Shown here: piece by piece, positions 1 to 39,764 of the stretch | Position numbering within the stretch: the first letter of the stretch is position 1 | How the letters are laid out: every line of letters begins with the position of its first letter | From: a virus | DNA length: 39,764 bases | Strand: one strand, 5' to 3' | UHGV virus genome: UHGV-0145637 | Notes under the pieces: generated by a model | Database searches by the model: none | The model's input: the letters and a program-made list of their open reading frames with translations, nothing else | What the model was told of the DNA's origin: nothing | Position numbers and translations under genes: made by a program

Positions 1-54
1 GGCATACGAGATCTAGTACGGTCGCGTGGGCTCGGAGATGTGTATAAGAGACAG
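1..54. other. Illumina Nextera index adapter plus Tn5 mosaic end (library artefact, not biological)
   Basis: Starts GGCATACGAGAT, then an 8-nt index-like block, then ...GGGCTCGG and AGATGTGTATAAGAGACAG (Tn5 mosaic end). Confidence 0.9.
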
Positions 55-101
55 GGTGAAATCACCTGTAAGATACTGAAATAAAACAGGTGATGTCTGG
101 A

Positions 102-256: not shown

Positions 257-787
257 CTAACCCGCTTTAGATTCTACCGGATTTGATTGCCTACTTGTCT
301 CGGTTTTTTCCAAAATCTCTCTGACGCAATCGTCTGGCATATCTACAATCATCAACGCAGCCAGGCGCTTCCTGCCTTCTAGTTGTAATAAATCTTGGTT
401 TTCTTTATTCAGCAGTGTCAGAACCGTCTCTACACCTTTGCGAGCAAGGAGATTGGTTAACTGTTCTCGTTCGTCTTTCGTAAGGAATGAAAGCATCTGT
501 GTAAGCTGATCTCCCTTATCACCAGAACAACCAAAATTACCATAAATACCAATATCGTTTGGTAATTCACCCTTGCCCTCTTTAAGCCACTCAAGACTAA
601 CGCCTTCACTTTCAGAAATTCGTATAAGGATACTTTCTCTGGGGGCTGGTTGTGTTTGTCCTCCCTTGAAATAGCTGTTTAATGTGTTGATATTGATTCC
701 CCACGCTCTGGCAGCTGCACTTCTTGAAGGGTAGCGCTTTGTAAGCATTCCAATACGTTCAATAACAGGTTCTTTTCCCTGCGACAT
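257..787 (-). CDS. Prophage repressor with HTH, in the position of Mu c
   Basis: Leftward ORF just left of ner. HTH-like stretch AAARAWGININTLNSYFKGG. Start taken at MSQGKEP with AAGAGG RBS upstream; the track ORF extends further but lacks an RBS. Confidence 0.6.
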   Translation of the reverse strand: MSQGKEPVIERIGMLTKRYPSRSAAARAWGININTLNSYFKGGQTQPAPRESILIRISESEGVSLEWLKEGKGELPNDIGIYGNFGCSGDKGDQLTQMLSFLTKDEREQLTNLLARKGVETVLTLLNKENQDLLQLEGRKRLAALMIVDMPDDCVREILEKTETSRQSNPVESKAG

Positions 788-977
788 AAAGATACCTCTT
801 GGTGCTTTTCTAAGGAAAGGTTTCTTTCTATTTATCCAATTGAAAAATAAGGATAAAAGCAAAAATTAGCCAAAATACCAAAAATACCTTGATTTGGTAT
901 TTTTGGTGATGCATTATTTACCCGTACAGATATCCGCACGAATATCCGCGCGGGTAACTTTTTAGAATAGAGGAAGT
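788..977. promoter_or_regulatory. Divergent repressor/early promoter-operator region
   Basis: AT-rich intergenic region with inverted repeat ACCAAAAATACC...GGTATTTTTGGT and tandem ATATCCGC repeats; position matches Mu Pe/Pc operators. Confidence 0.5.
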
Positions 978-1227: not shown

Positions 1228-3318
1228 ATGTATGTCATTGCAAAAGAACTGATTGGCGCGCCCGGAATGCCTGCTACAACAAAAGGTATTCGCCAGGCAT
1301 TACAACGTTACGTACAAGGGAAAAGCTGTTGTTCCCGTCGTCGCTCAGGCTCTAAAGCAACTGAATACAGCATCGACTGTTTACCTGAAGTGACGCAGCA
1401 GGCATTACGTGAACGCTACGCCCTGCAACTGATGACGCAAAAAGCCGATGAATCACCGGCTCCGGTGGTGACAAAGGCCAGACGCTCACCTGCCGTGGTT
1501 GATGCGGTGGAGGCATATCGCGGATCACCCCAACTGATGGTCGAACGCCTCAATGCCCTGACTGAAAACCAACGTAAAGTGGCAGAGGCACGAATAGCGA
1601 TCGTCAGCGAGGTGCTGAAAATCGCGCAACAACCCGGCTTTAGTTGCGCTAAGGCTATCCGGTTCCTCGTTAACAGCCTGGCACGATCACAACTGGACGA
1701 GCGCATTGTGGCAATGGTTGAGACGGCGAACGCCAAAAAGGGAAACAGCCGCGCGTTGAGTGAAATCACGCTGAAACGCTGGATTGCGGCCTTTAACAAG
1801 GCACAGAACGCCGCTGAACGCCTGCTTTTACTGGCACCGGGTAAACGCCAGGAAATAAAAGCCGAAGATATTAACTGGCTGCCCGAATTTCTGGCGCAGT
1901 ATCGCCAGTCAAACGGCCGACCAATGACCGAGGCTTACGAGGATTTTGTTGCTGAATGGCAGCACCGGCACGCTGATGAGCCTTATATGCTCGATATCAT
2001 GCCCTCTTATGACACCATTCGCCGCGCAATGAAGAAACTGCCGGAAGTGGTGAAACAAAAAGGCCGGGTAACTGGCAGTGAATACCGTCAGCTTGAGGGA
2101 TTCACGCGCCGCGACTGGTCCAGAATGCCGGTGAATTATGTCTGGATTGGTGACGGTCACGGCATGAAGCTGAAATGCGCGCACCCGGTTCACGGGCGGC
2201 CATTCGCACCGGAAGTGACCTTTGTTATCGACGGTGGCACGCGCTTTGTGGTGGGCTGGAGCCTTGACCTGGCTGAAAATGTTTTCGCCGTAGCCGGTGC
2301 CATACAGCACGGTATTCGCCATCATGGCAAACCGTTTCTGTATTACTCGGATAATGGCTCCGGGGAAACCGCCGACGTCCTGGATAAGGAGATTGTGGGG
2401 ATACTGCCACGACTGGGGATTAATCACCCGACAGGGATTGCCGGTAATCCGCAGGGACGGGGCATTATCGAACGGCTTAACCGCACATTACCGATGCGCA
2501 TAGCCCGTAAATACCGCACCTATTTCGGGAAAGGAGCAGATCGCGAGACGTTACGTAAAACCAACCGCGATTTACGCTCGGCATTCAGTGCCCTGCAACA
2601 GGGCAAACGGCTGAACGCCCGGCAGCAGTCAGCGATGCGTGATTTACCGTCCTGGTCTGAACTGATTGATGCCATTCGTGACGGTGTTGAGTGGTACAAC
2701 AACCGGCCGCACGATGAATTACCCATGAAGCCGAACGGTAAACATTACAGCCCGGCGGAGTTCAGAAAAAAACGCCTGGCGGAAGAGGACACGGAAATTG
2801 AATGGCTGTCCGATGTTGAACTGCGGGATATGTTCCGGCCGATGGTGGAGCGCCCTGTAAGACGCTGTGAAATACGCTGGCTGAATAATATTTACTACGC
2901 GCCCGAGCTGCGTGACGAGCATGGCCGTAAGGTACTTATCAGCTATGACATTCATGATGCCGAACGAATTACCGTGCGCCGCCCGGATGGCAGCGTGATT
3001 TGCGAGGCGGTATGGGACGGCAATAAACGCGAAGCCTTCCCTGTCAGCGCGGAATACTACAAACAGCAGCAGCGCCTTAAAGGCATGCGTAAACGCGCAG
3101 AGGAAAAAATCCGTGATGCCGAGGATGAGGTTGTCAACGTGCTGGAGCACAAGCCGCAGGAGCCCTGGCTGGAAAACATATACCGCCCTGTGGGTAATAC
3201 GGTGACCGTTCAGCAACCGGTCGCTGACGATGAACCTGATGAAGAATACGAGCGTAATTTCCAGCGGGGATTGCAACTGCTCGAAGCGAAATTAAAAGAA
3301 AGTGATCCGCTGGCCTGA
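1228..3318 (+). CDS. A: Mu-type DDE transposase A
   Basis: 696 aa (Mu A is 663 aa); position after ner and before the B ATPase; start overlaps ner stop. Confidence 0.85.
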   Translation: MYVIAKELIGAPGMPATTKGIRQALQRYVQGKSCCSRRRSGSKATEYSIDCLPEVTQQALRERYALQLMTQKADESPAPVVTKARRSPAVVDAVEAYRGSPQLMVERLNALTENQRKVAEARIAIVSEVLKIAQQPGFSCAKAIRFLVNSLARSQLDERIVAMVETANAKKGNSRALSEITLKRWIAAFNKAQNAAERLLLLAPGKRQEIKAEDINWLPEFLAQYRQSNGRPMTEAYEDFVAEWQHRHADEPYMLDIMPSYDTIRRAMKKLPEVVKQKGRVTGSEYRQLEGFTRRDWSRMPVNYVWIGDGHGMKLKCAHPVHGRPFAPEVTFVIDGGTRFVVGWSLDLAENVFAVAGAIQHGIRHHGKPFLYYSDNGSGETADVLDKEIVGILPRLGINHPTGIAGNPQGRGIIERLNRTLPMRIARKYRTYFGKGADRETLRKTNRDLRSAFSALQQGKRLNARQQSAMRDLPSWSELIDAIRDGVEWYNNRPHDELPMKPNGKHYSPAEFRKKRLAEEDTEIEWLSDVELRDMFRPMVERPVRRCEIRWLNNIYYAPELRDEHGRKVLISYDIHDAERITVRRPDGSVICEAVWDGNKREAFPVSAEYYKQQQRLKGMRKRAEEKIRDAEDEVVNVLEHKPQEPWLENIYRPVGNTVTVQQPVADDEPDEEYERNFQRGLQLLEAKLKESDPLA

Positions 3319-3400
3319 AATAAAAAAATAACCCGAGGGGTGACTCAGGTTATTTGAGGTTTCAGTCTCGGAGAATGCTGTCTCAAGCGAGGTGAATAAT

Positions 3401-4333
3401 ATGACCGATATTAACGATGTAATCAAGACCATTGATGAACTTATTGATGGCGGCGTACTGACGCAGTATGCCATCGCCAGAGAGGCGGGAATTTCCGACG
3501 GCACATTATCGGCTTTCCGTAAGGGAAAATATAAAGGCGATAACGCTGCTGTGGCTGCTTCCCTGCGCTCCTGGTATGAGAACTGGAATAAACAAAGCGC
3601 ACTGCCGGAACCGCCGCAGTTTGTGGAAACTCAGACAGTCCAGGAGCTGCGCGCACTGTTTCAGGCGGTTCGCCTGATGGGCTGTATTAACGTTATTGTG
3701 GGCGTACCGGGTGTGGGTAAAACGGCCACTGCCCGTAATTACTGCCAGGAGCAACCAAACACCTGGATGATCACCCTGTCACCCGCGCACTCCAGCGTCA
3801 CGGAGTGTCTGCTGGAGCTGGCCGATGCGCTGGGGATTGATTACACCCGCGCGAACAAAGGGGCATTATCCCGCGCCATCCGCCGTCGCCTGATGGGAAC
3901 GCGTGGACTGGTGATTGTGGATGAGGCGGATCATCTTGGTATTGACGGTCTGGAGCAACTCCGGGCAATTCAGGACGCCACGGGGATCGGGATGGTGCTT
4001 ATTGGTAACCCGCGCGGATTGTTTAAAGGTGGACGCCGCGCCTTTGATGATTTATCGCGCCTGTTCAGCCGTCTTGCCCGTACAAAACAACTTCGCAAGG
4101 CCAAAAAGGCGGATGTGCTGGCCATTGCCATGGCGTGGGGGATCAGTGGTGAGGCCGAGCTGGCCGTCATGCAGGCTATCGCTGAAAAGCCGGGAGCGTT
4201 ACGCGTTCTGACACATACGCTTAACCAGGCGTGGCTCACCGCCAGCGGTGAAGGCGCGGCGCTGACAGAAAAACATATTAATGCGGCCTTTAAAGAGGTT
4301 TATACCAACCCTGAATTACTCTCACAGGTGTGA
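3401..4333 (+). CDS. B: Transposition ATPase / target DNA activator B
   Basis: Walker A GVPGVGKT; N-terminal HTH; overall resemblance to MuB as recalled; GAGGTG RBS 7 nt before the ATG at 3401. Confidence 0.85.
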   Translation: MTDINDVIKTIDELIDGGVLTQYAIAREAGISDGTLSAFRKGKYKGDNAAVAASLRSWYENWNKQSALPEPPQFVETQTVQELRALFQAVRLMGCINVIVGVPGVGKTATARNYCQEQPNTWMITLSPAHSSVTECLLELADALGIDYTRANKGALSRAIRRRLMGTRGLVIVDEADHLGIDGLEQLRAIQDATGIGMVLIGNPRGLFKGGRRAFDDLSRLFSRLARTKQLRKAKKADVLAIAMAWGISGEAELAVMQAIAEKPGALRVLTHTLNQAWLTASGEGAALTEKHINAAFKEVYTNPELLSQV

Positions 4334-9981: not shown

Positions 9982-10404
9982 ATGGCTGAAACACAGATGA
10001 GCATGTTTGGTGACAGCGAACAGCTGCACGCGCTGATTGACCGTCTGGATGATATTCCTGATGATGAGCTGAAAAAGAACTGGCCCGGCACGCTGCGGGA
10101 CCTGGTTGATGTGATCAGTGCTGAACTGCACCGTCAGGGGATTGAACCTGCTCAGGCGGGAATGCTTGCCCGTAAGGTTGCAGCCGCACAGGCCGGGTAC
10201 ATGGGCGGGCGTGGTTATTATCTCCCGGTCGGTGAATCCCTTTTCACCGAACTGCGCAATAATGAAATTTTTTCCCGCTGGAGCCAGGGCGAAAAAATTG
10301 AAACCCTGCGCCGCCACTACCAGATGTCAGAGACGCAGATTTACTCCGTTATCCGCAACCAGCGTCGCCTGCATCAGGAACGCACGCAGCCACGGCTTTT
10401 CTGA
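9982..10404 (+). CDS. Mor/C-family transcription activator (middle/late)
   Basis: 140 aa; C-terminal HTH-like region (...ETLRRHYQMSETQIYSVIRNQRRL) resembles the Mor/C family as recalled; only one family member in the window. Confidence 0.7.
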   Translation: MAETQMSMFGDSEQLHALIDRLDDIPDDELKKNWPGTLRDLVDVISAELHRQGIEPAQAGMLARKVAAAQAGYMGGRGYYLPVGESLFTELRNNEIFSRWSQGEKIETLRRHYQMSETQIYSVIRNQRRLHQERTQPRLF

Positions 10405-10475
10405 TATTCCGCAAATCCTGCCCACTTTTTCCCACGGTTACGCTGACTCAGAGAACACCATGAGACAGCGTAACA

Positions 10476-18461: not shown

Positions 18462-18638
18462 TGGTTTAAGGTATACAAACGCATTGCCTTACCCTCTTCA
18501 GGCGCGTGTCGTGATTTTCTAACCTGTATTTAACGGGCTTTAAAATCTGCGTGAAGCGCCTTTCTCATTTTTCCCCTGTCAGCACTTTCTGAAGTCCCGC
18601 AAAACCGGCCCCGAAAAACACCGGCTTATGCTGCCGGA
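18462..18638. other. Non-coding gap between G-like and I-like genes; candidate strong gyrase site
   Basis: 177-bp ORF-free gap in an otherwise tightly packed operon, near the genome centre, at the same gene junction where the Mu strong gyrase site lies. Confidence 0.4.
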
Positions 18639-19763
18639 ATGAAGACGAAAAACACGCCCAAACTTGCTTATGCCATTCTGAATGCCATCAGCCTGTCCGC
18701 AGACGGGGACGGTGACTGGTGTCAGATCATGCCAGCCGGTCGGGTAAAGGCCCGTGACGGTCGCCCGGAAAAACCGGCGGAAGGCTGGCTGATTAACCAT
18801 GCGGCCGTTGAGCGCATGGTATCCCGGGTTGTGGCGCTCAATCAGCCGGTAAAAATTGACTACAACCACCAGACCCTGATTAAGGGGCATCCGGCACCGG
18901 CTGCCGGTTTTGTCATGGCCTCACCGGAAAACTTCCGCTTCAGTGAAGAGCGGGGTTTTGAAGTGCGTCCGGACTGGAACCCTCCGGCCATTGAACACCT
19001 GCGCAATAACGAATTTCCCTGGTTTTCCCCGGTGATTGGTTATGACGAAATCACCGGTGAACCTGTTGAGCTTCGGATGCTGGCTATTACCGGTGACCCC
19101 GGTCTGACTGGCATGAATCCTGTCGCCGCACTGTCGGCGGATGACCTTTATAACGCCTTAAACCCTCCTTTAAAGGACACCTCCATGAATGAGCAATTAC
19201 GCCAGTTGCTGACGGCGCTCGGTCTGACCGTGGCCGACGGTGACGAATTTACACCGGAACTGGGCACGGCGGCGCTGTCTGCCCTTACCGGGATCAAAAC
19301 CCGTGCGGATGCGCACGACACCCTGAAAACGCAGGTTGCCAGCCTGTCGGCAGAGCTGGAAACCGCAAAAGGCACACCAACTGGCGGCACTATTGATCTG
19401 ACGAAATACGTGCCCGTTGAGACGTATAACGCCCTGCGTACCGAATATGTCGCGTTGTCGGCACAACACGGCAGCACCACGCTGGAGCAGTTGCTGGATA
19501 AGGCCGAGTCCGAAGGACGCATTTTCAAAAGCGAACGCGGATACATGGAAGGACTCGGACAACAGATTGGTGTTGCGGCACTTTCTGCACAGCTTGACGC
19601 CCGCCAGCCGGTTGCGGCTCTGACCACTCTTCAGACCGACACCGTAACCGTGCCGGATAAAAAGACCGCCACCGCTGCGCTGTCGGCTGAAGATATCGCC
19701 GCCGCCCATCTGCTGGGTAAAACCGAAGCCGAGTTCCTGAAAATGAAAGAGGAAATGCAATAA
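18639..19763 (+). CDS. Head protease/scaffold protein (Mu I-like)
   Basis: 374 aa directly upstream of the major head gene; Ala-rich C-terminal half typical of scaffold region. Confidence 0.7.
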   Translation: MKTKNTPKLAYAILNAISLSADGDGDWCQIMPAGRVKARDGRPEKPAEGWLINHAAVERMVSRVVALNQPVKIDYNHQTLIKGHPAPAAGFVMASPENFRFSEERGFEVRPDWNPPAIEHLRNNEFPWFSPVIGYDEITGEPVELRMLAITGDPGLTGMNPVAALSADDLYNALNPPLKDTSMNEQLRQLLTALGLTVADGDEFTPELGTAALSALTGIKTRADAHDTLKTQVASLSAELETAKGTPTGGTIDLTKYVPVETYNALRTEYVALSAQHGSTTLEQLLDKAESEGRIFKSERGYMEGLGQQIGVAALSAQLDARQPVAALTTLQTDTVTVPDKKTATAALSAEDIAAAHLLGKTEAEFLKMKEEMQ

Positions 19764-33964: not shown

Positions 33965-34537
33965 ATGCTGATTGGGTATATCAGGGTGTCAACAAATGAC
34001 CAGAATACGGCGCTACAAAGAAATGCGCTGGAATGTGCAGGATGTGAGCTGTTTTTCGAAGACAGAATAAGCGGTAAGACAAGGGAGCGTCCCGGACTTA
34101 AACGCGCATTAAAGCGACTCCGGCCAGGGGATACCCTGCTGGTCTGGAAACTGGATCGCCTTGGACGCAGTATGCAGCACCTTGTCCTTTTAACAGAAGA
34201 ACTCCGGCAACGCGGCGTTAACTTCCGCAGCATTACGGACAATATTGATACATCCACTCCCATGGGACGTTTCTTTTTCCATATAATGGGCGCGCTGGCG
34301 GAAATGGAGCGGGAACTCATTATTGAACGTACACGCGCGGGTCTTGCTGCTGCCCGTGCTCAGGGGCGTCATGGCGGCAGACCTCAGAAACTGACAGAGA
34401 AAGAGCGGGAGCAAATCGCCCGTTTGCTGGCTAATGGCGAGTCCCGTAAACAAATCGCACTGATATTTGATATTGGCCTTTCCACCCTTTATCGTTATTT
34501 TCCTGCCTCACCAGCTCCGTCACCAAAAGTACCGTGA
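33965..34537 (+). CDS. gin: Serine recombinase DNA invertase (Gin/Hin/Cin/Pin family)
   Basis: MLIGYIRVSTNDQNTALQRNAL... with catalytic-serine motif and C-terminal HTH; near-colinear with Mu Gin as recalled. Confidence 0.9.
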   Translation: MLIGYIRVSTNDQNTALQRNALECAGCELFFEDRISGKTRERPGLKRALKRLRPGDTLLVWKLDRLGRSMQHLVLLTEELRQRGVNFRSITDNIDTSTPMGRFFFHIMGALAEMERELIIERTRAGLAAARAQGRHGGRPQKLTEKEREQIARLLANGESRKQIALIFDIGLSTLYRYFPASPAPSPKVP

Positions 34538-34622
34538 CGCTTTTTTGAATTTCCGCAAAACACATATTTTTCAGCGGTCGCTATTCTGACTCTGTTTAAT
34601 TCAGAAACAGGCAGAAAAGACG

Positions 34623-36677
34623 ATGTCAGACTCCAAGTGGAAAATGCTCTCCGCCATGCCCGGAGAGTTTTCAGTCAAGGTTGCCGGTGGCACGGTGGCA
34701 TTTATTGAAAGCCCTTTCCGCCCTTCGGGTAATAAAGGGGGGATCACCTTCGCAGACTGCGTGATCCGCTTCAGCACGAAAGAGCCATTATGGGTAATGC
34801 CGGTATCCGGTAATCCCAGTGCAGAAATCACCAGTTCAGGCGTGACTGGCATCATTCCAATCACATCTGACGTGGCCGGAACGCTCACGCCCTCCGACTG
34901 GAATGCACCGGATAACGCCGGGCCTTCCGGTAGCACGAATGGCAGCAGTTCAGAGCCGGAATATTACTTTGTTGTCATTCTCGCGGGTCAGTCAAATGGC
35001 ATGGCCTACGGCGAGGGGCTGCCGTTACCGGATTCGTTTGACCGCCCGGACCCACGCATTAAGCAACTGGCACGCCGCAGTACGGTAACGCCCAACGGTA
35101 CGTCGTGTACATACAACGACATCATTCCGGCAGACCACTGCCTGCATGATGTTCAGGATATGAGCGGGATAAACCACCCGAAAGCTGATCTGGCAAAAGG
35201 CCAGTACGGGACTGTCGGTCAGGGGTTGCATATTGCCAAAAAACTGCTTCCCTATATCCCACAGAATGCCGGGATACTTCTGGTGCCCTGTTGTCGTGGC
35301 GGGTCAGCATTCACCACTGGAGCCGACGGCTCATTCAGTGAGGCCAGCGGTGCTTCCGCTGATTCTTCACGCTGGGGGGCCGGTAAACCTCTGTATCAGG
35401 ACCTGGTAAGCCGCACCAAAGTCGCGCTGGCGAAAAACCCGAAAAACAAACTTCTGGCTGTGGTCTGGATGCAGGGAGAGGCAGACCTTGCCTCAGGAAG
35501 CCAGCAGCATAATAGTTTATTCACGGCCATGGTTCAGCAGTTCAGAACTGACCTGGCTCCGCTTGCTGCGCAGTGCGTGAGTGGAAATGCCACCACGGTG
35601 CCGTGGATTTGCGGTGATACCACGTATTACTGGAAAAACGCTGGCACCGATAAATATGAGGCAGTATACGGTGGCTACAAAGGCAAGGAAGCACAGAAAA
35701 TTTTCTTTGTACCGTTCCTGACGGATGAGAATGGACAGAGCACGCCAACGAATGCTCCGGCGGAAGACCCGGATATTGTGGCTGTCGGGTATTACGGTGC
35801 AGCATCCCGAACCCAGGGCAGTTTTGTTTCGACACAGCGTGACAGCCATTTCAGCTCATGGGCACGCAGGGGCGTCATTTCAGACCGTCTGGCCTCAGCT
35901 ATTATGCTCCATGCAGGGCGCACGGCTGAACTGATGCGCGGGCAGACCGTGACACCACCGGATGAGAAGCCGTCACCTGATACACCATCAAAACCGTCCA
36001 CGCCACCCGCAGACACCACGACGATGAGTACGCTATTTGCTTACCGGGCATCTGAGTCTGAAGGACGGTTGACACCACAGGGTTGGGCTGCCGGAGGTGG
36101 CAAGGCTCAAATCGTGGATGATGCCGGAGCCAGCGGGGGTAAGGCAATGAAACTGACCAAGGAAACAGGAAGAGCCCCCTGGTACCTTGAGCATGATGCT
36201 GGTAATGGTGCGGACCTGCTGGGTAAAGGTGGTCTTGTCAGTTGTCGTTTTAAACTCGATGGCGCGCTTACGGCTAATCAGTACGCACTGGCGCTGTACT
36301 GGCCGGTTTCTGCCCTGCCGCAAGGGGTTACTCTGGAAGGAAATGCCGGTCATAACCTGCTGGCATCGTTCTACGTACAGAGCGATGCCACAGACCTTAA
36401 CGTGATGTATCACAAAGGAAACACGGCGCAGAACACGAAGCTGGGGTCATTCGGCGCATTTAATAACGAATGGCATACGCTGGGCTTCCGTTTTGCCGGT
36501 AACAACAGTATTGAGGTGACACCGGTCATTGATGGTAAGGACGGGACACCATTCATGCTGTCGCAGTCTCCGGTCGGCACGTTTACGGCAGACAAGTTGC
36601 GCGTGACCGATATCACTAAAAATGCGACTTACCCGGTACTGATTGACAGTATCGTGGTGGAAGTGAATAACGCGTAA
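34623..36677 (+). CDS. SGNH-type (sialate-O-acetylesterase-like) esterase domain protein with Pro/Thr linker and C-terminal beta-rich domain
   Basis: Motifs VILAGQSNGMAYGEG and VVWMQGEAD; linker PPDEKPSPDTPSKPSTPPADTTT; about 210-aa C-terminal domain; no N-terminal signal peptide. Confidence 0.5.
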   Translation: MSDSKWKMLSAMPGEFSVKVAGGTVAFIESPFRPSGNKGGITFADCVIRFSTKEPLWVMPVSGNPSAEITSSGVTGIIPITSDVAGTLTPSDWNAPDNAGPSGSTNGSSSEPEYYFVVILAGQSNGMAYGEGLPLPDSFDRPDPRIKQLARRSTVTPNGTSCTYNDIIPADHCLHDVQDMSGINHPKADLAKGQYGTVGQGLHIAKKLLPYIPQNAGILLVPCCRGGSAFTTGADGSFSEASGASADSSRWGAGKPLYQDLVSRTKVALAKNPKNKLLAVVWMQGEADLASGSQQHNSLFTAMVQQFRTDLAPLAAQCVSGNATTVPWICGDTTYYWKNAGTDKYEAVYGGYKGKEAQKIFFVPFLTDENGQSTPTNAPAEDPDIVAVGYYGAASRTQGSFVSTQRDSHFSSWARRGVISDRLASAIMLHAGRTAELMRGQTVTPPDEKPSPDTPSKPSTPPADTTTMSTLFAYRASESEGRLTPQGWAAGGGKAQIVDDAGASGGKAMKLTKETGRAPWYLEHDAGNGADLLGKGGLVSCRFKLDGALTANQYALALYWPVSALPQGVTLEGNAGHNLLASFYVQSDATDLNVMYHKGNTAQNTKLGSFGAFNNEWHTLGFRFAGNNSIEVTPVIDGKDGTPFMLSQSPVGTFTADKLRVTDITKNATYPVLIDSIVVEVNNA

Positions 36678-36821
36678 GCAGGATAAAAAAATGCCGCCGG
36701 TAAGGGAAAACAAGAAACCGGCGGCAAAAAGATCGTTATATCCAAAGCAAAAAATGCAGTGCACCTTTTTACCTAACAGATATTACCGGTGTCAACACCA
36801 TGTCAATAATTGGGAGGGATA

Positions 36822-37004
36822 ATGACATTTTTACAGCTTATTTTATTGTATTTCTGCACGGCAGTATGTGCGTTATATCTGGTGAGTGGTGGTTATAAGG
36901 CCATCAGAAATTATGTTCGCCGCAAAATTGAGGACGCAGCAGCTGAAAAACTCAGTAAAACAGCGCAGGTAACTCCGCTCCCAAAAGACCCGACCCAGCC
37001 CTGA
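36822..37004 (+). CDS. Small membrane protein, 60 aa
   Basis: GGGAGGG RBS 5 nt before ATG; MTFLQLILLYFCTAVCALYLV hydrophobic helix then charged tail. Confidence 0.45.
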   Translation: MTFLQLILLYFCTAVCALYLVSGGYKAIRNYVRRKIEDAAAEKLSKTAQVTPLPKDPTQP

Positions 37005-37039
37005 TTGCAGGGCTTTATTCCCGCATAAGGAGGATATAC

Positions 37040-37294
37040 ATGCCAGAAATTAAAGGCACCGTCACTGAAGACCTGGTAAAACAGGCACTGTATTCCGGTG
37101 AAGTAAATAAGTTGCTGAAAGCGCAGGTCCGCAAGGATTTTGAGGCACAAATCGACACTTACGTTGATGAAGTGCTGGCAAAACTTATTGGGCCAGCAGT
37201 TGCGGCCAGTGATGCTGATAATGAGCCGAAAACCGACGCGCAGCCAGAGCAACCAGACCCGGCTCAGCCCGGAACTGACAGTACCATGATGTAA
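37040..37294 (+). CDS. Small acidic hypothetical protein, 84 aa
   Basis: Strong AAGGAGG RBS; acidic Pro-rich C-terminus; hairpin AAACCGG...CCGGTTT downstream. Confidence 0.5.
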   Translation: MPEIKGTVTEDLVKQALYSGEVNKLLKAQVRKDFEAQIDTYVDEVLAKLIGPAVAASDADNEPKTDAQPEQPDPAQPGTDSTMM

Positions 37295-37461
37295 CAATAC
37301 AAACCGGTGGTGTCCTCTGCCGGTTTGACACTAATGAAAACATCTTTGCCGCTATCCAGCCATATGTAATCGCTGGATAGTATTTCGTATTCAGAAATAT
37401 AGCTGCTTATGGAGCAGTCAATCCTGCTTCCCCATCCGGGCAGGCAAATGAACCGGTATCA

Positions 37462-37755
37462 TTAGTCCGATTCACGCTTTTGTAGAATCGTTCCCAGAAT
37501 GCTATACAGCTCATTAGCCTGTTGCTCCATCATTGAGACGGAGGCTATACGGTGCAAAGTGATTTCAGGAGGTGGCACACCTCCATCTTCTTGCTGTGGA
37601 GGAAAAACATAAGATTTAATAAAAAAGTTGAAGCATATGAACTCTCCCGCACTCGAACTGTATTTGCAGGCATCTGAATAATCGGAAAAATAATCATTAT
37701 AGATTTCCGCATTTTCAATCATTTTTCGATTTCTCGTCGTTACATGATTGTCCAT
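37462..37755 (-). CDS. Hypothetical protein, 97 aa, antisense to neighbours
   Basis: TAAGAGG RBS, AT-rich, divergent from com-mom across a 255-bp AT-rich region. Confidence 0.45.
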   Translation of the reverse strand: MDNHVTTRNRKMIENAEIYNDYFSDYSDACKYSSSAGEFICFNFFIKSYVFPPQQEDGGVPPPEITLHRIASVSMMEQQANELYSILGTILQKRESD

Positions 37756-37877
37756 AGCAGCCTCTTACGCTGGCAATTAACCAATTGACTTCTATAAATT
37801 AGTTGATTTGTTTGCTTTGCGGTATTCAAATGTACAATCATTCAGCACTTATGCGTTACAGCACCGTTTAAAATTAG

Positions 37878-37964
37878 TGATCAAACTCATAAATTTTCGC
37901 TAATGACATTTCGTGTTATTTGTTGTATCAATTAAATAAATCAAATCGATCGTTTTTGTCGATC
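37878..37964. promoter_or_regulatory. GATC cluster with inverted repeat upstream of com-mom
   Basis: GATC at 37878, 37948 and 37961; the last two lie in the palindrome AATCGATCG-TTTTTGT-CGATCGATT, about 50 bp before the com start. Confidence 0.5.
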
Positions 37965-38011
37965 GATTGAGTGATAAAGATATCAACAACAAAGCAGGAG
38001 GTTATGCGGCC

Positions 38012-38212
38012 ATGTATCGAAACATACGGTGCCGACATTGTAACAAGCTACTGGCACGAGCCAGCTTCAGTTATCTGGAAGTTAAATGTCCGCGCTGTAA
38101 AACCCTCAATCAAATCACATCTCAGAGCGCCACAGAGCACCCCACATACACAAGGAAATCCTGTCGTGGGGAACAGAAAGCAAGTTACATCCCGTATCAT
38201 CAGCACGCCTGA
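38012..38212 (+). CDS. com: Com zinc-finger translational activator of mom
   Basis: [10 protein letters not shown]...EVKCPRCK matches the Mu Com zinc finger as recalled (IRCKNCNKLL...IRCPRCK); GCAGGAGG RBS; start at the internal Met of the track ORF. Confidence 0.8.
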
Positions 38213-38903
38213 ACTTATTCACTATAACGACAATATCGTCGGTTATGGCTCCCGTGAGTTACGGGTTGAGACAATAAGTTGCTGGCTGGCCCGGCTGGTC
38301 GTCGTCAATAAACATTACAGCCATCGTTTCGTAAATAATTCCTACCTTCATCTGGGCATATTTTCAGAACGGGAGCTGGTTGGCGTAATGCAATGGGGTT
38401 ATGCCCTTAATCCAAACAATGGTGCACGCGTCGTAACTGGCACGCAGAACCGCGAATATATGGAGCTTAACCGGTTATGGCTGCATGACTGTATGCCGAG
38501 AAACTCCGAATCAAGGGCAATCAGTTACGCGCTCAAACTAATCAGACAACTTTATCCGCAGGTGCAGTGGGTTCAGTCGTTTGCAGATGAGCGTTGTGGC
38601 TGTCTTGGTGTCGTGTACCAGGCAAGCAATTTTGATTATGTAGGCAGTCATGAAACAACATTCTATGAACTTGATGGCGAGTGGTATCACGAGATTTGCA
38701 AGAATGCAATCAAACGAGGAGGACAGCGAGGTGAACATCTGCGGGCTAATATCGACAGAGCCAGTGTTCATAAATTCCGTCAGTTTCGTTACATCCGGTT
38801 TCTGGACAAGAGAGCCAGAAAACGCCTTAACACAAAGCTATTCAAAGTCCAGCCTTACCCAAAACCACAAACAGTTAAAACTGGTTTGAAAGAGAGTGAA
38901 TGA
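38166..38903 (+). CDS. mom: Mom-like DNA modification protein
   Basis: 246-aa frame beginning inside the 3' end of com (GTG at 38166 with AGGAAA upstream), as in Mu; assigned by position and size only. Confidence 0.55.
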
Positions 38904-38944
38904 ACGCTTAAAAACTCATTCTAAAACTCAAAAGAAAAGCGCCG

Positions 38945-39036
38945 ATTTAGTATCAAATAAGTTGCGTATCGGCGTTTTTCAGCGGTATCAAATGAAATGC
39001 AAATCGGTATCAAAAAAATCGCCGCGCTATAATACA
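38945..39036. repeat. Right-end region with three GTATCAAA repeats (attR-like) and putative terminus ...TAATACA
   Basis: GTATCAAA at 38950, 38985 and 39007; reverse complement of the terminus begins TGTATTATAGCG. Confidence 0.5.
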
Positions 39037-39735
39037 TGCGCTTGCTTGCGCACTCCAGCGCCAGCTGTTTGATGTCGTAGTTCGGATCGCCTTTTTTATG
39101 GTTCAGACCATCGCGAATCGCAAACACCAGTTTCGGGAACACCGCAGTTTTACGGTTTTTACCGAGGCCTGCGATACGGTTACGCAGGATAGATTCCTGA
39201 ATCAGGCGCGACTCCCAGCTGGTGCCCAGACCAAAACCAAAGGTTACAAACGGCGTCTGACCGTTGGCGGTGTGCAGGGTGTTTACTTCGTACTCCAGCG
39301 ACTGGAAGGCATCGTAGCACTCTTTAATGGTACGAGAGTTAGCGTAGCCTTCGGCGTCCGGGATGTTCCACTCTTCTGCGGTCTTGCGATGTTTGTTGTA
39401 GCTGGCGGTAACAAACGGCGCCAGCACTTCATCGATACGGTTAATGGTGGTGCCGCCATAAATATGGCTGGCGACCTGAGCAATAATCTGCGCAGTTACC
39501 GCGGTTGCCGTAGAGATCGACTTCGGCGGTTCAATCTCGGCGTTCCCCATCTTAAAGCCCTGGGTCAGCATGCCTTTCAGGTCGATCAACATGCAGTTGA
39601 ACATCGGGAAGAACGGCGAGTAATCGAGATCGTGATAGTGAATATCGCCACGCTCATGTGCCTGCACCACGTCACGCGGCAGCAGGTGCTGACGTGCATA
39701 GTGTTTAGCCACGATCCCGGCCAGCAGGTCGCGCT
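39037..39735 (-). CDS. nrdD: Host anaerobic ribonucleoside-triphosphate reductase, 5'-partial and interrupted at the phage junction
   Basis: Minus-strand translation AKHYARQHLLPRDVVQAHERGDIHYHDLDYSPFFPMFNCMLIDLKG... resembles enterobacterial NrdD as recalled; the frame runs out of the contig and degenerates on entering phage DNA after ...ECASKRMY. Confidence 0.6.
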
Positions 39736-39764
39736 CTGTCTCTTATACACATCTGACGCTGCCG
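39736..39764. other. Nextera adapter read-through (library artefact)
   Basis: CTGTCTCTTATACACATCT (reverse complement of the Tn5 mosaic end) followed by GACGCTGCCG. Confidence 0.9.

Follow-up and report, generated by a model that had tools for sequence, protein, structure and literature searches.

The com-mom operon and its prophage

The window, by which is meant the whole stretch of 39,764 nt that was analysed, is almost wholly one Mu-like transposable prophage of the Sp18/Mu-like type found in E. coli, and the overlapping genes com and mom are the last transcription unit before its right end. The two genes and the com ribosome-binding site lie as follows.

37996-38001, plus strand: Shine-Dalgarno sequence of com (AGGAGG), 10 nt 5' of the ATG at 38012, kept in the lineage
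38012-38212, plus strand: com, 66 aa, CCCC zinc-finger translational activator (RefSeq WP_014334043.1)
38166 (GTG) to 38903 (stop), plus strand: mom, 245 aa, GNAT fold (RefSeq WP_000528246.1)

The Com protein matches Pfam family PF10122 (Zn_ribbon_Com) with an E value of 7.5e-13 (48.2 bits, cut-off 22.9) and is 45% identical to Mu Com, and its Cys7, 10, 26 and 29 align with Cys6, 9, 26 and 29, the zinc-binding cysteines of the Mu protein (PMC3299994), so the zinc finger that a preliminary description of this DNA had called clear is borne out. Mom is 78% identical to Mu Mom, and it matches Pfam PF25680 over profile positions 1-202 of 202 (E 7.8e-78, 261 bits, cut-off 27.1), PHROG 1384 ('Mom-like DNA modification protein'; E 2.8e-83) and the crystal structure of Mu Mom (PDB 8BV8; E 2.4e-123). 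The alignment to Mu com and mom which that description had proposed as a check on its reading thus returned both proteins as homologues, and the similarity to Mom on which its naming of the downstream frame depended is present. On identical DNA, RefSeq uses the names 'Com family ...' and 'tRNA(Gly)-dependent adenine aminoacyltransferase Mom', though neither protein had a match in the copy of NCBIfam searched here.

The mom gene starts with GTG, as it does in Mu, and overlaps com by 47 nt, compared with 50 nt in Mu. The Mu-like overlap of a downstream frame with the 3' end of com, as first described, therefore stands, and the length given for that frame, 246 aa, is corrected to 245 aa. A 310-aa extended Mom, in which the mom frame runs through all of com (37971-38903, with an ATG at 38004 just past the Shine-Dalgarno sequence), was rejected because a stop that lies 27 codons upstream closes this frame in the O157 type, which is 97% identical; in other lineages the frame is closed at varying points.

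The surrounding prophage contains the following landmarks.

257-862, minus strand: c-like repressor ORF, assigned by position and size only, Pfam match absent
Left part of the prophage, between the c-like repressor ORF and MuA: Ner
1228-3318: MuA (Pfam Mu-transpos_C and HTH_Tnp_Mu_1)
3392-4333: MuB (Pfam Phage-MuB_C)
9982-10404: Mor/C-family activator, single copy, just before the lysozyme gene
33965-34537: gin-type invertase
37755-37462, minus strand: divergent orphan ORF, 97 aa
38904-39031: prophage right end (attR), carrying TATCAAA three times, at 38951, 38986 and 39008

GemA is also encoded, and the features of a Mu-like transposable phage (MuA, MuB, c and ner at the left, mom at the right and many insertion sites) were all found. 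The three TATCAAA repeats in attR are presumably transposase-binding sites. The boundary was placed at 39031 because four independent insertions share the sequence up to ...GCGCTATA and diverge beyond it; after this junction the host gene nrdD forms the right flank. Copies of the prophage are inserted in nrdD, beside tcyL, in a gene of the xdh region and beside garL, as expected since the phage transposes, and the variety of these sites across genomes speaks for an element that is active and against a relic.

The Mu operon (AF083977, Mu_52/Mu_53) has the same gene order and overlap and is likewise the last operon before attR. In Mu, gin lies directly upstream of com-mom, abutting the mom promoter, whereas a 3.4-kb cargo block and the divergent orphan gene lie between them here, so the preliminary description was correct that the neighbouring divergent gene departs from Mu. 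After gin come a late promoter, a gene for a DUF6645 protein of 684 aa that has a sialate-O-acetylesterase domain, and DUF1378 and DUF826 genes. The divergent ORF (37462-37755) had no family match in family-profile searches, and its homologues are confined to E. coli and Shigella prophages. Relatives carry other content in this slot, namely a different, frameshifted gene in the O157 type and small minus-strand ORFs in the L050 lineage. The difference from Mu at the divergent gene thus reflects a variable cargo slot, and the gin-com interval is a hotspot for such genes. In the L052 lineage, the slot holds an ORF that resembles an acyltransferase by its N-terminal sequence.

Mu-like phages, Sp18 of E. 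coli O157 among them, are known to encode Mom and its regulator at the same position (PMC3299994). In Sp18-type prophages of E. coli O157 and other strains, com, mom, the operator and the ribosome-binding region are identical or 95-97% identical to those of the window, and the same cargo cassette lies upstream; the O157 type differs in its divergent gene, in the DNA 5' of 37903, in carrying another version of a 15-nt segment upstream of com and in lacking the GATC at 37879. The identity of the module as Mu-type com-mom is supported by the protein families, the gene order, the overlap, the position at the prophage's right end and the elements of translational control, and judged from its sequence the operon is very probably functional.

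GATC sites and a predicted OxyR-type operator

Three GATC sites lie upstream of com, at 37879, 37948 and 37961, and the last two are contained in a palindrome, as had been noted before. The features of this region are as follows.

37927-37963: predicted OxyR-type operator, holding GATC 37948-37951 and with GATC 37961-37964 at its end
37944-37968: inverted repeat AATCGATCG-N7-CGATCGATT, with 9-bp arms and a 7-nt spacer, carrying GATC 37948 and GATC 37961
37969-37983, plus strand: hypervariable segment of 15 nt that separates the operator from the ribosome-binding region of com

In number the GATC sites are unremarkable (the window has 120 where about 150 are expected, and further local clusters exist), but the arrangement upstream of com goes beyond chance, as 37948/37961 is the only pair in the window with a spacing of 13 bp. 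Similarity to OxyR sites was scored as a simple and crude count of matches, over 20 positions, to the tetramer consensus ATAGnTnnnAnCTAT-N7-ATAGnTnnnAnCTAT. On this scale 37927-37963 scores 13 of 20, the window maximum, a score that 4 of about 39,700 positions attain. In registers spaced by 9 bp the scores run 12, 13 and 12, and the same series, with the same offset to GATC II, is found in the OxyR region of Mu that is known from experiment (at 2648, 2657 and 2666 of L002, the Mu sequence used here).

DNA homology to Mu extends without gaps from ATCAATTAAA (37927) to GATCGATT (37968). The Mu GATC sites I, II and III are at 2660, 2678 and 2691 of L002, or -87, -69 and -56 when +1 is placed at 2747 from the published oligonucleotide spanning -58 to +20 (PMC4461284/PMC3378877) and the Mu sequence. 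GATC 37948 and GATC 37961 are the positional homologues of Mu sites II and III, and the spacing of 13 bp, the flanks, the inverted repeat and the OxyR-consensus register are all shared; in Mu the repeat reads AATCGATC-N9-GATCGATT. Mu site I has no counterpart in the window, where its position, 18 bp 5' of site II, reads CAAT in a right-anchored ungapped comparison by eye. The GATC at 37879 lies 69 bp 5' of the next one, in DNA without homology to Mu, and is present in the window and CI5 types only, so it is probably outside the control system. The proposed parallel with the Dam- and OxyR-controlled Mu promoter is consequently supported for the 37948/37961 pair and probably does not extend to 37879, and the statement that GATC spacing differs from that of Mu was mistaken, as Mu has the same palindrome and a spacing of 13 bp as well.

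The inverted repeat appears to correspond to one OxyR dimer half-site between Dam sites. A GATC pair 13 bp apart would in this arrangement flank one half-site of a 37-bp OxyR-like operator, and its methylation would block binding of the repressor. A similar layout is known from the Dam/OxyR epigenetic switches P22 gtr and E. coli agn43; in P22 gtr, GATC pairs 13 bp apart surround an OxyR half-site (PMC2909390). By analogy with Mu, Dam and OxyR most probably gate the transcription of com-mom.

Comparisons among relatives point to the operator as the constrained part of this region. In 12 distinct upstream variants of the prophage lineage, the block that runs from TATTTGTTG through GATCGATT shows hardly any change. 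The segment at 37969-37983 has nearly invariant sequence on both sides, yet five or more unrelated versions of it exist in relatives that share 95-100% identity in com and mom; among lineage relatives it holds no conserved -10 hexamer, and RNAalifold found in it neither a conserved RNA hairpin nor covariation. A scan of 37300-39100 against Rfam gave nothing near threshold. In distant com-mom operons of diverse enterobacterial lineages, with upstream regions that are otherwise unalignable, GATC pairs or triplets recur at spacings of 13, 18 or 31 bp.

The promoter region of com-mom

In Mu, the operator lies upstream of a C-activated promoter. The distance from GATCGATT to the com ATG is 43 nt in the window and 70 nt in Mu, which brings the operator 27 nt closer to com, and the 27 nt that in Mu carry the C site, the T6 run and the -35 and -10 elements of Pmom have no counterpart here: the C-binding box (AATAACC), the T-run and the TAAGAT -10 of Mu all fall within the missing stretch. 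The activator of this phage, its one Mor/C-family protein, is 40% identical to Mu C, and the late box reads CCGCAAA here and ATAACC in Mu. Three nearly identical late promoters of the form TTTcTGAnnTtCCGCAAA-N22/23-TA(C/T)(G/T)CTGaC are present.

10395: before the lysozyme gene
18583: before the head-region operon that starts at 18639; we take it to match the I promoter of Mu, by position
34539 (34539-34603): before the gene after gin

A profile built from these sites, which themselves score 48-53, gave 36 or less at all window positions apart from shifted copies of the three. Neither an exact search for the box nor the profile scan found a fourth late promoter upstream of com, where the best score was 29, a background value of rank 133. 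The arrangement of a late-activator (C) site over a weak -35 element, followed by a -10 element, is thus missing between the Dam sites and com. A consensus scan for sigma-70-like sites on the plus strand upstream of com returned none that passed. For the stretch from the GATC pair to com, a sigma-70 promoter was considered and rejected, as its -10 element was unconvincing and the candidates were not conserved in close relatives.

Com-mom operons can be divided by the distance of the last GATC from the com ATG into a 'far' arrangement (71-81 nt; Mu, L019, L053 and L055) and a 'near' arrangement (51-54 nt; the lineage of this prophage, L050, L051, L052 and L007). Among the near-type lineages, L050, L051 and L052 have a good -10 element (TATACT or TATAGT) and L007 a weaker one (TAGATT), in each case ending 35-36 nt before the ATG; therefore, the GATC pair in these lineages would lie over the -35 element and the spacer. 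The corresponding position in the window reads GTGATA, and it varies among close relatives.

With its shorter distance to com, and in the absence of the late-promoter signature, the operator should have one of two placements: over the core promoter, the geometry of P22 gtr, or in a transcribed leader, the geometry of agn43. If the com leader were as long as that of Mu, the GATC pair would be at about -42/-29, near the -46/-33 of the promoter-proximal pair of P22 gtr (PMC2909390). These systems differ from com-mom in their targets, as P22 gtr and agn43 phase-vary surface structures in growing cells, whereas the target in the window is a toxic late phage gene. A second OxyR site arrangement, like the A, B and C sites of gtr, was not found in the window, and we know of no phase variation for mom.

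The agn43-like geometry, with a promoter 5' of the GATC pair and the palindrome in the transcribed 5' leader (as the term 'leader' in the preliminary description implies), is possible but doubtful. One candidate for such a promoter is ATGACA-17-TATCAA (37903-37931), which follows a degenerate activator box, TTTTCGCTAA. The pattern ATGAC[AT]-17-TATCAA is kept in all lineage variants, the homology to the O157 type starts exactly there, and TCGCTAA-N22-TATCAA mimics the late-promoter spacing CCGCAAA-N22/23-TAnnCT; a leader would also tolerate the variable 15-nt segment. However, the last T, which is nearly invariant in -10 hexamers, is missing from TATCAA, the match to the activator box is at background (rank 133), and the O157 type has TTGTTGA in its place. 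The other candidate is TTTAAA-17-TAAATT (37867-37895), which scores best among the sigma-70-like sites of the intergenic region; it is missing in the O157 type, however, and AT-rich DNA often yields matches of this kind.

We offer more tentatively, and as something rather unlikely, the proposal that near-type com-mom operons, in this widespread E. coli lineage and in several other enterobacterial Mu-like phages, have lost the C-activated promoter, with the Dam/OxyR operator placed right on the core promoter or within the leader, so that transcription of the toxic anti-restriction gene would be gated mainly by the methylation of two GATC sites. If this were true, com-mom would be under an epigenetic switch like those of gtr and agn43, outside the late cascade, and its state could be heritable or phase-variable in lysogens.

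It is unlikely that com-mom lacks its own promoter and depends on read-through of transcripts that start at the late promoter (34539-34603) and pass via the DUF6645, DUF1378 and DUF826 genes, with OxyR at the unmethylated GATC pair acting as a roadblock. This would accommodate the clear late promoter just 3' of gin, which is the position of Pmom in Mu, and the lack of both a late signature and a good sigma-70 promoter beside com. Transcription would, however, have to pass an opposing gene (37755-37462) and hairpins at 37305-37330, after DUF826, and at 37568-37584, the latter terminator-like on the plus strand, and the operator block is still kept in relatives with quite different genes in the slot.

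Even less probable is that the palindrome and its GATC pair survive as an inherited relic, or have another role (such as a bidirectional insulator hairpin, or SeqA or Fis binding), while mom is controlled by Com and timing only. One of the three Mu GATC sites has indeed been lost, and the palindrome together with the TGATTTATTT that comes after it was called terminator-like on the minus strand, but no gene reads into that 'terminator'. The near invariance of the operator block beside a hypervariable segment also speaks against a relic, as does the recurrence of GATC pairs at 13 or 18 bp upstream of com in distant lineages.

Predicted translational control of mom

The elements predicted to control translation of mom lie within com and across the start of mom.

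38125-38141, plus strand: putative Com RNA target GAGCGCCACAGAGCACC, with a 4-bp hairpin (38127-38130/38137-38140) and a 6-nt loop containing CC(N3)GAG
38140-38171, plus strand: predicted translation inhibition structure, in which the stem CCCCAC/GUGGGG pairs the mom GUG and the loop holds AAGGA (38152-38156), the Shine-Dalgarno sequence of mom

In Mu, Com binds a short hairpin beside a translation inhibition structure that holds the mom GUG in its stem, and in vitro selection with Mu Com yielded the motif NGAGNNCC(N)2-3GAGNNCCNN, with a six-residue loop CC(N)2-3GAG (PMC6483171). When this motif was searched as GAGNNCC(N2-3)GAGNNCC on both strands of the whole window, the only match was at 38125-38141, 25 nt 5' of the mom GUG, where about 0.24 matches would be expected by chance.

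Both structures are retained in other com-mom operons. In an alignment of 11 com-mom lineages with Mom proteins 73-100% identical, all four stem pairs of the Com hairpin covary, with changes on both sides, and 93% of the cells are paired; the hairpin of the window has one C.A mismatch, which is a U-A pair in the sister copy L029. The inhibitory stem is part of the predicted minimum-energy fold in the window, in Mu and in three other lineages, and five of its pairs (CCCAC/GUGGG) are invariant in the 11 lineages, while the sixth is C-G in the window and U-A in Mu. Mu thus shares the CCCAC/GUGGG stem on the mom GUG as well as a Com hairpin whose 6-nt loop contains CC(N3)GAG, and the arrangement that defines targets of the Com family, a CC(N2-3)GAG hairpin adjoining a stem-loop that sequesters the start codon, is found here. 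Base 38140 is both the last of the Com hairpin and the first of the inhibitory stem, which fits the accepted model, drawn from Mu, that binding of Com destabilises this stem.

The elements of the switch are intact by sequence, and their action is inferred from Mu. On the basis of Mu biochemistry, Com would be translated first, late in lytic growth, and would then bind the hairpin and melt the inhibitory stem, so that Mom could be translated.

Mom and the predicted DNA modification

The chemistry, which the preliminary description gave as a conversion of adenine to N6-carbamoylmethyl-adenine, has since been worked out more finely: Mu Mom moves glycine from Gly-tRNA(Gly) onto adenine N6, giving a product that then rearranges into the carbamoylmethyl adduct (PMC13219725). 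By homology, the Mom of this prophage is likewise a Gly-tRNA(Gly)-dependent adenine N6 aminoacyltransferase. The residues needed for activity of Mu Mom (W48, H58, Y59, R111, S124, D149, R151, Y159 and W181 in the numbering of the 241-aa protein; PMC13219725) are all identical in a global alignment, and the helix-turn-helix-like insertion (175-209) aligns with that of Mu Mom without gaps. If the protein acts as in Mu, it would add glycine to adenine N6 in double-stranded DNA, the glycine adduct would rearrange to N6-carbamoylmethyl-adenine, and the packaged DNA would be shielded from many restriction enzymes.

That this Mom is inactive or makes a different modification, as might be supposed for an allele that differs from Mu Mom in 22% of its residues, is very improbable given that it keeps every residue found to be important by mutagenesis, has a gap-free helix-turn-helix-like insertion and is encoded by an intact ORF that is identical in many genomes.

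Distribution and implications

Ten or more complete E. coli genomes match the 1.6 kb around com-mom at 100% identity, strains DLI.5a and AST46 carry copies that are likewise 100% identical, and the same DNA is found in part or at full length, at 90% identity or more, in 233 of 5426 complete E. coli genomes. The com-mom operon described here is therefore an already known and annotated system, ordinary and common in E. coli, and its discovery value is small, as the operon, its proteins, the translational switch and the chemistry are established for Mu. As far as the literature consulted shows, the sole feature without prior description is the shortened promoter region that lacks the late-activator signature, a putative and modest regulatory variant whose mode of action may differ from that in Mu.

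It is useful nonetheless to consider the consequences for work with lysogens and for views of how this family is regulated. Packaged DNA of this prophage is expected to contain N6-carbamoylmethyl-adenine, which would affect restriction digests, transduction across restriction barriers and the calling of modified bases from long reads. In addition, the promoter known from textbook accounts of Mu is one of at least two arrangements in natural com-mom operons, and the GATC pair is their conserved core.

Late promoters and cargo genes

Three nearly identical late-promoter-like sites in the Mu-like prophage share the consensus TTTcTGAnnTtCCGCAAA-N22/23-TAnnCTGaC. The three sites lie far over background, and their box is unlike the ATAACC box of Mu. 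These sites are presumably targets of a single Mor/C-family activator (9982-10404), the sole one in this phage, which is 40% identical to Mu C and 28% identical to Mor.

10395-10460, late-promoter-like site
18583-18648, late-promoter-like site
34539-34603, late-promoter-like site
34623-37294, cargo cassette between the invertase gene gin and com, with its own late promoter
37462-37755, minus strand, divergent orphan open reading frame (97 aa) with a good Shine-Dalgarno sequence

The cargo cassette is absent from Mu; its first gene codes for a protein of 684 aa that combines a SASA (sialate O-acetylesterase) domain with a DUF6645 domain, and is followed by a DUF1378 gene and a DUF826 gene. The 97-aa product of the divergent reading frame had no family match, its homologues are confined to Mu-like prophages of E. 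coli and Shigella, and a CCGCAAA box (37822-37816) is found on the same strand. Since unrelated genes take the position of this reading frame in related prophages, the site looks like a variable cargo slot. Variation is also found upstream of com, where a 15-nt segment (37969-37983) is wholly different between prophages that share 95-100% identity in the flanking operator (the OxyR-like, GATC-bearing block), com and mom; a 6-nt CAACAA expansion is present in addition in one relative.

Prophage ends and insertion site

Both ends of the window (1-54 and 39736-39764) consist of Illumina Nextera adapter sequence (left, ...GGCATACGAGAT-CTAGTACG-GTCGCGTGGGCTCGGAGATGTGTATAAGAGACAG; right, CTGTCTCTTATACACATCTGACGCTGCCG), so the contig was assembled from untrimmed reads. 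The 47 nt directly after the left adapter (55-101) are prophage DNA and not host flank, and they are found in 209 E. coli genomes at up to four copies per genome. The prophage of strain E2865 extends ~45 nt farther left (TGTAACCAGGTGAATCATTTGATACC...; window 55-101 compared with 370-447 of locus L105), so the window lacks the true left end and any left host junction.

The right terminus, ...GCGCTATA (39018-39031), is common to four independent insertions, so this end lacks the terminal CA dinucleotide of the right end of Mu. The three TATCAAA repeats at this end mirror the TTTGATA repeats at the left.

119 and 171, TTTGATA repeats, left end
38951, 38986 and 39008, TATCAAA repeats, right end
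39032-39735, host flank (junction after 39031), nrdD, anaerobic ribonucleotide reductase gene

The prophage disrupts nrdD after the codons for ...ECASKRMY; in other genomes the same prophage lies beside tcyL, within an xdh-region gene, or beside garL.

Com and Mom in other loci

RefSeq names the product of com (38012-38212, WP_014334043.1) a 'Com family DNA-binding transcriptional regulator', which is misleading because Mu Com binds RNA and activates translation. Many Mom homologues (~68-70% identity) lie mid-way in long viral contigs (loci L071-L104, with L014-L017 from genomes), and a scripted scan of these loci for open reading frames detected no com-like zinc-finger frame upstream of mom. 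Mom appears to be used without the Com switch in these loci.
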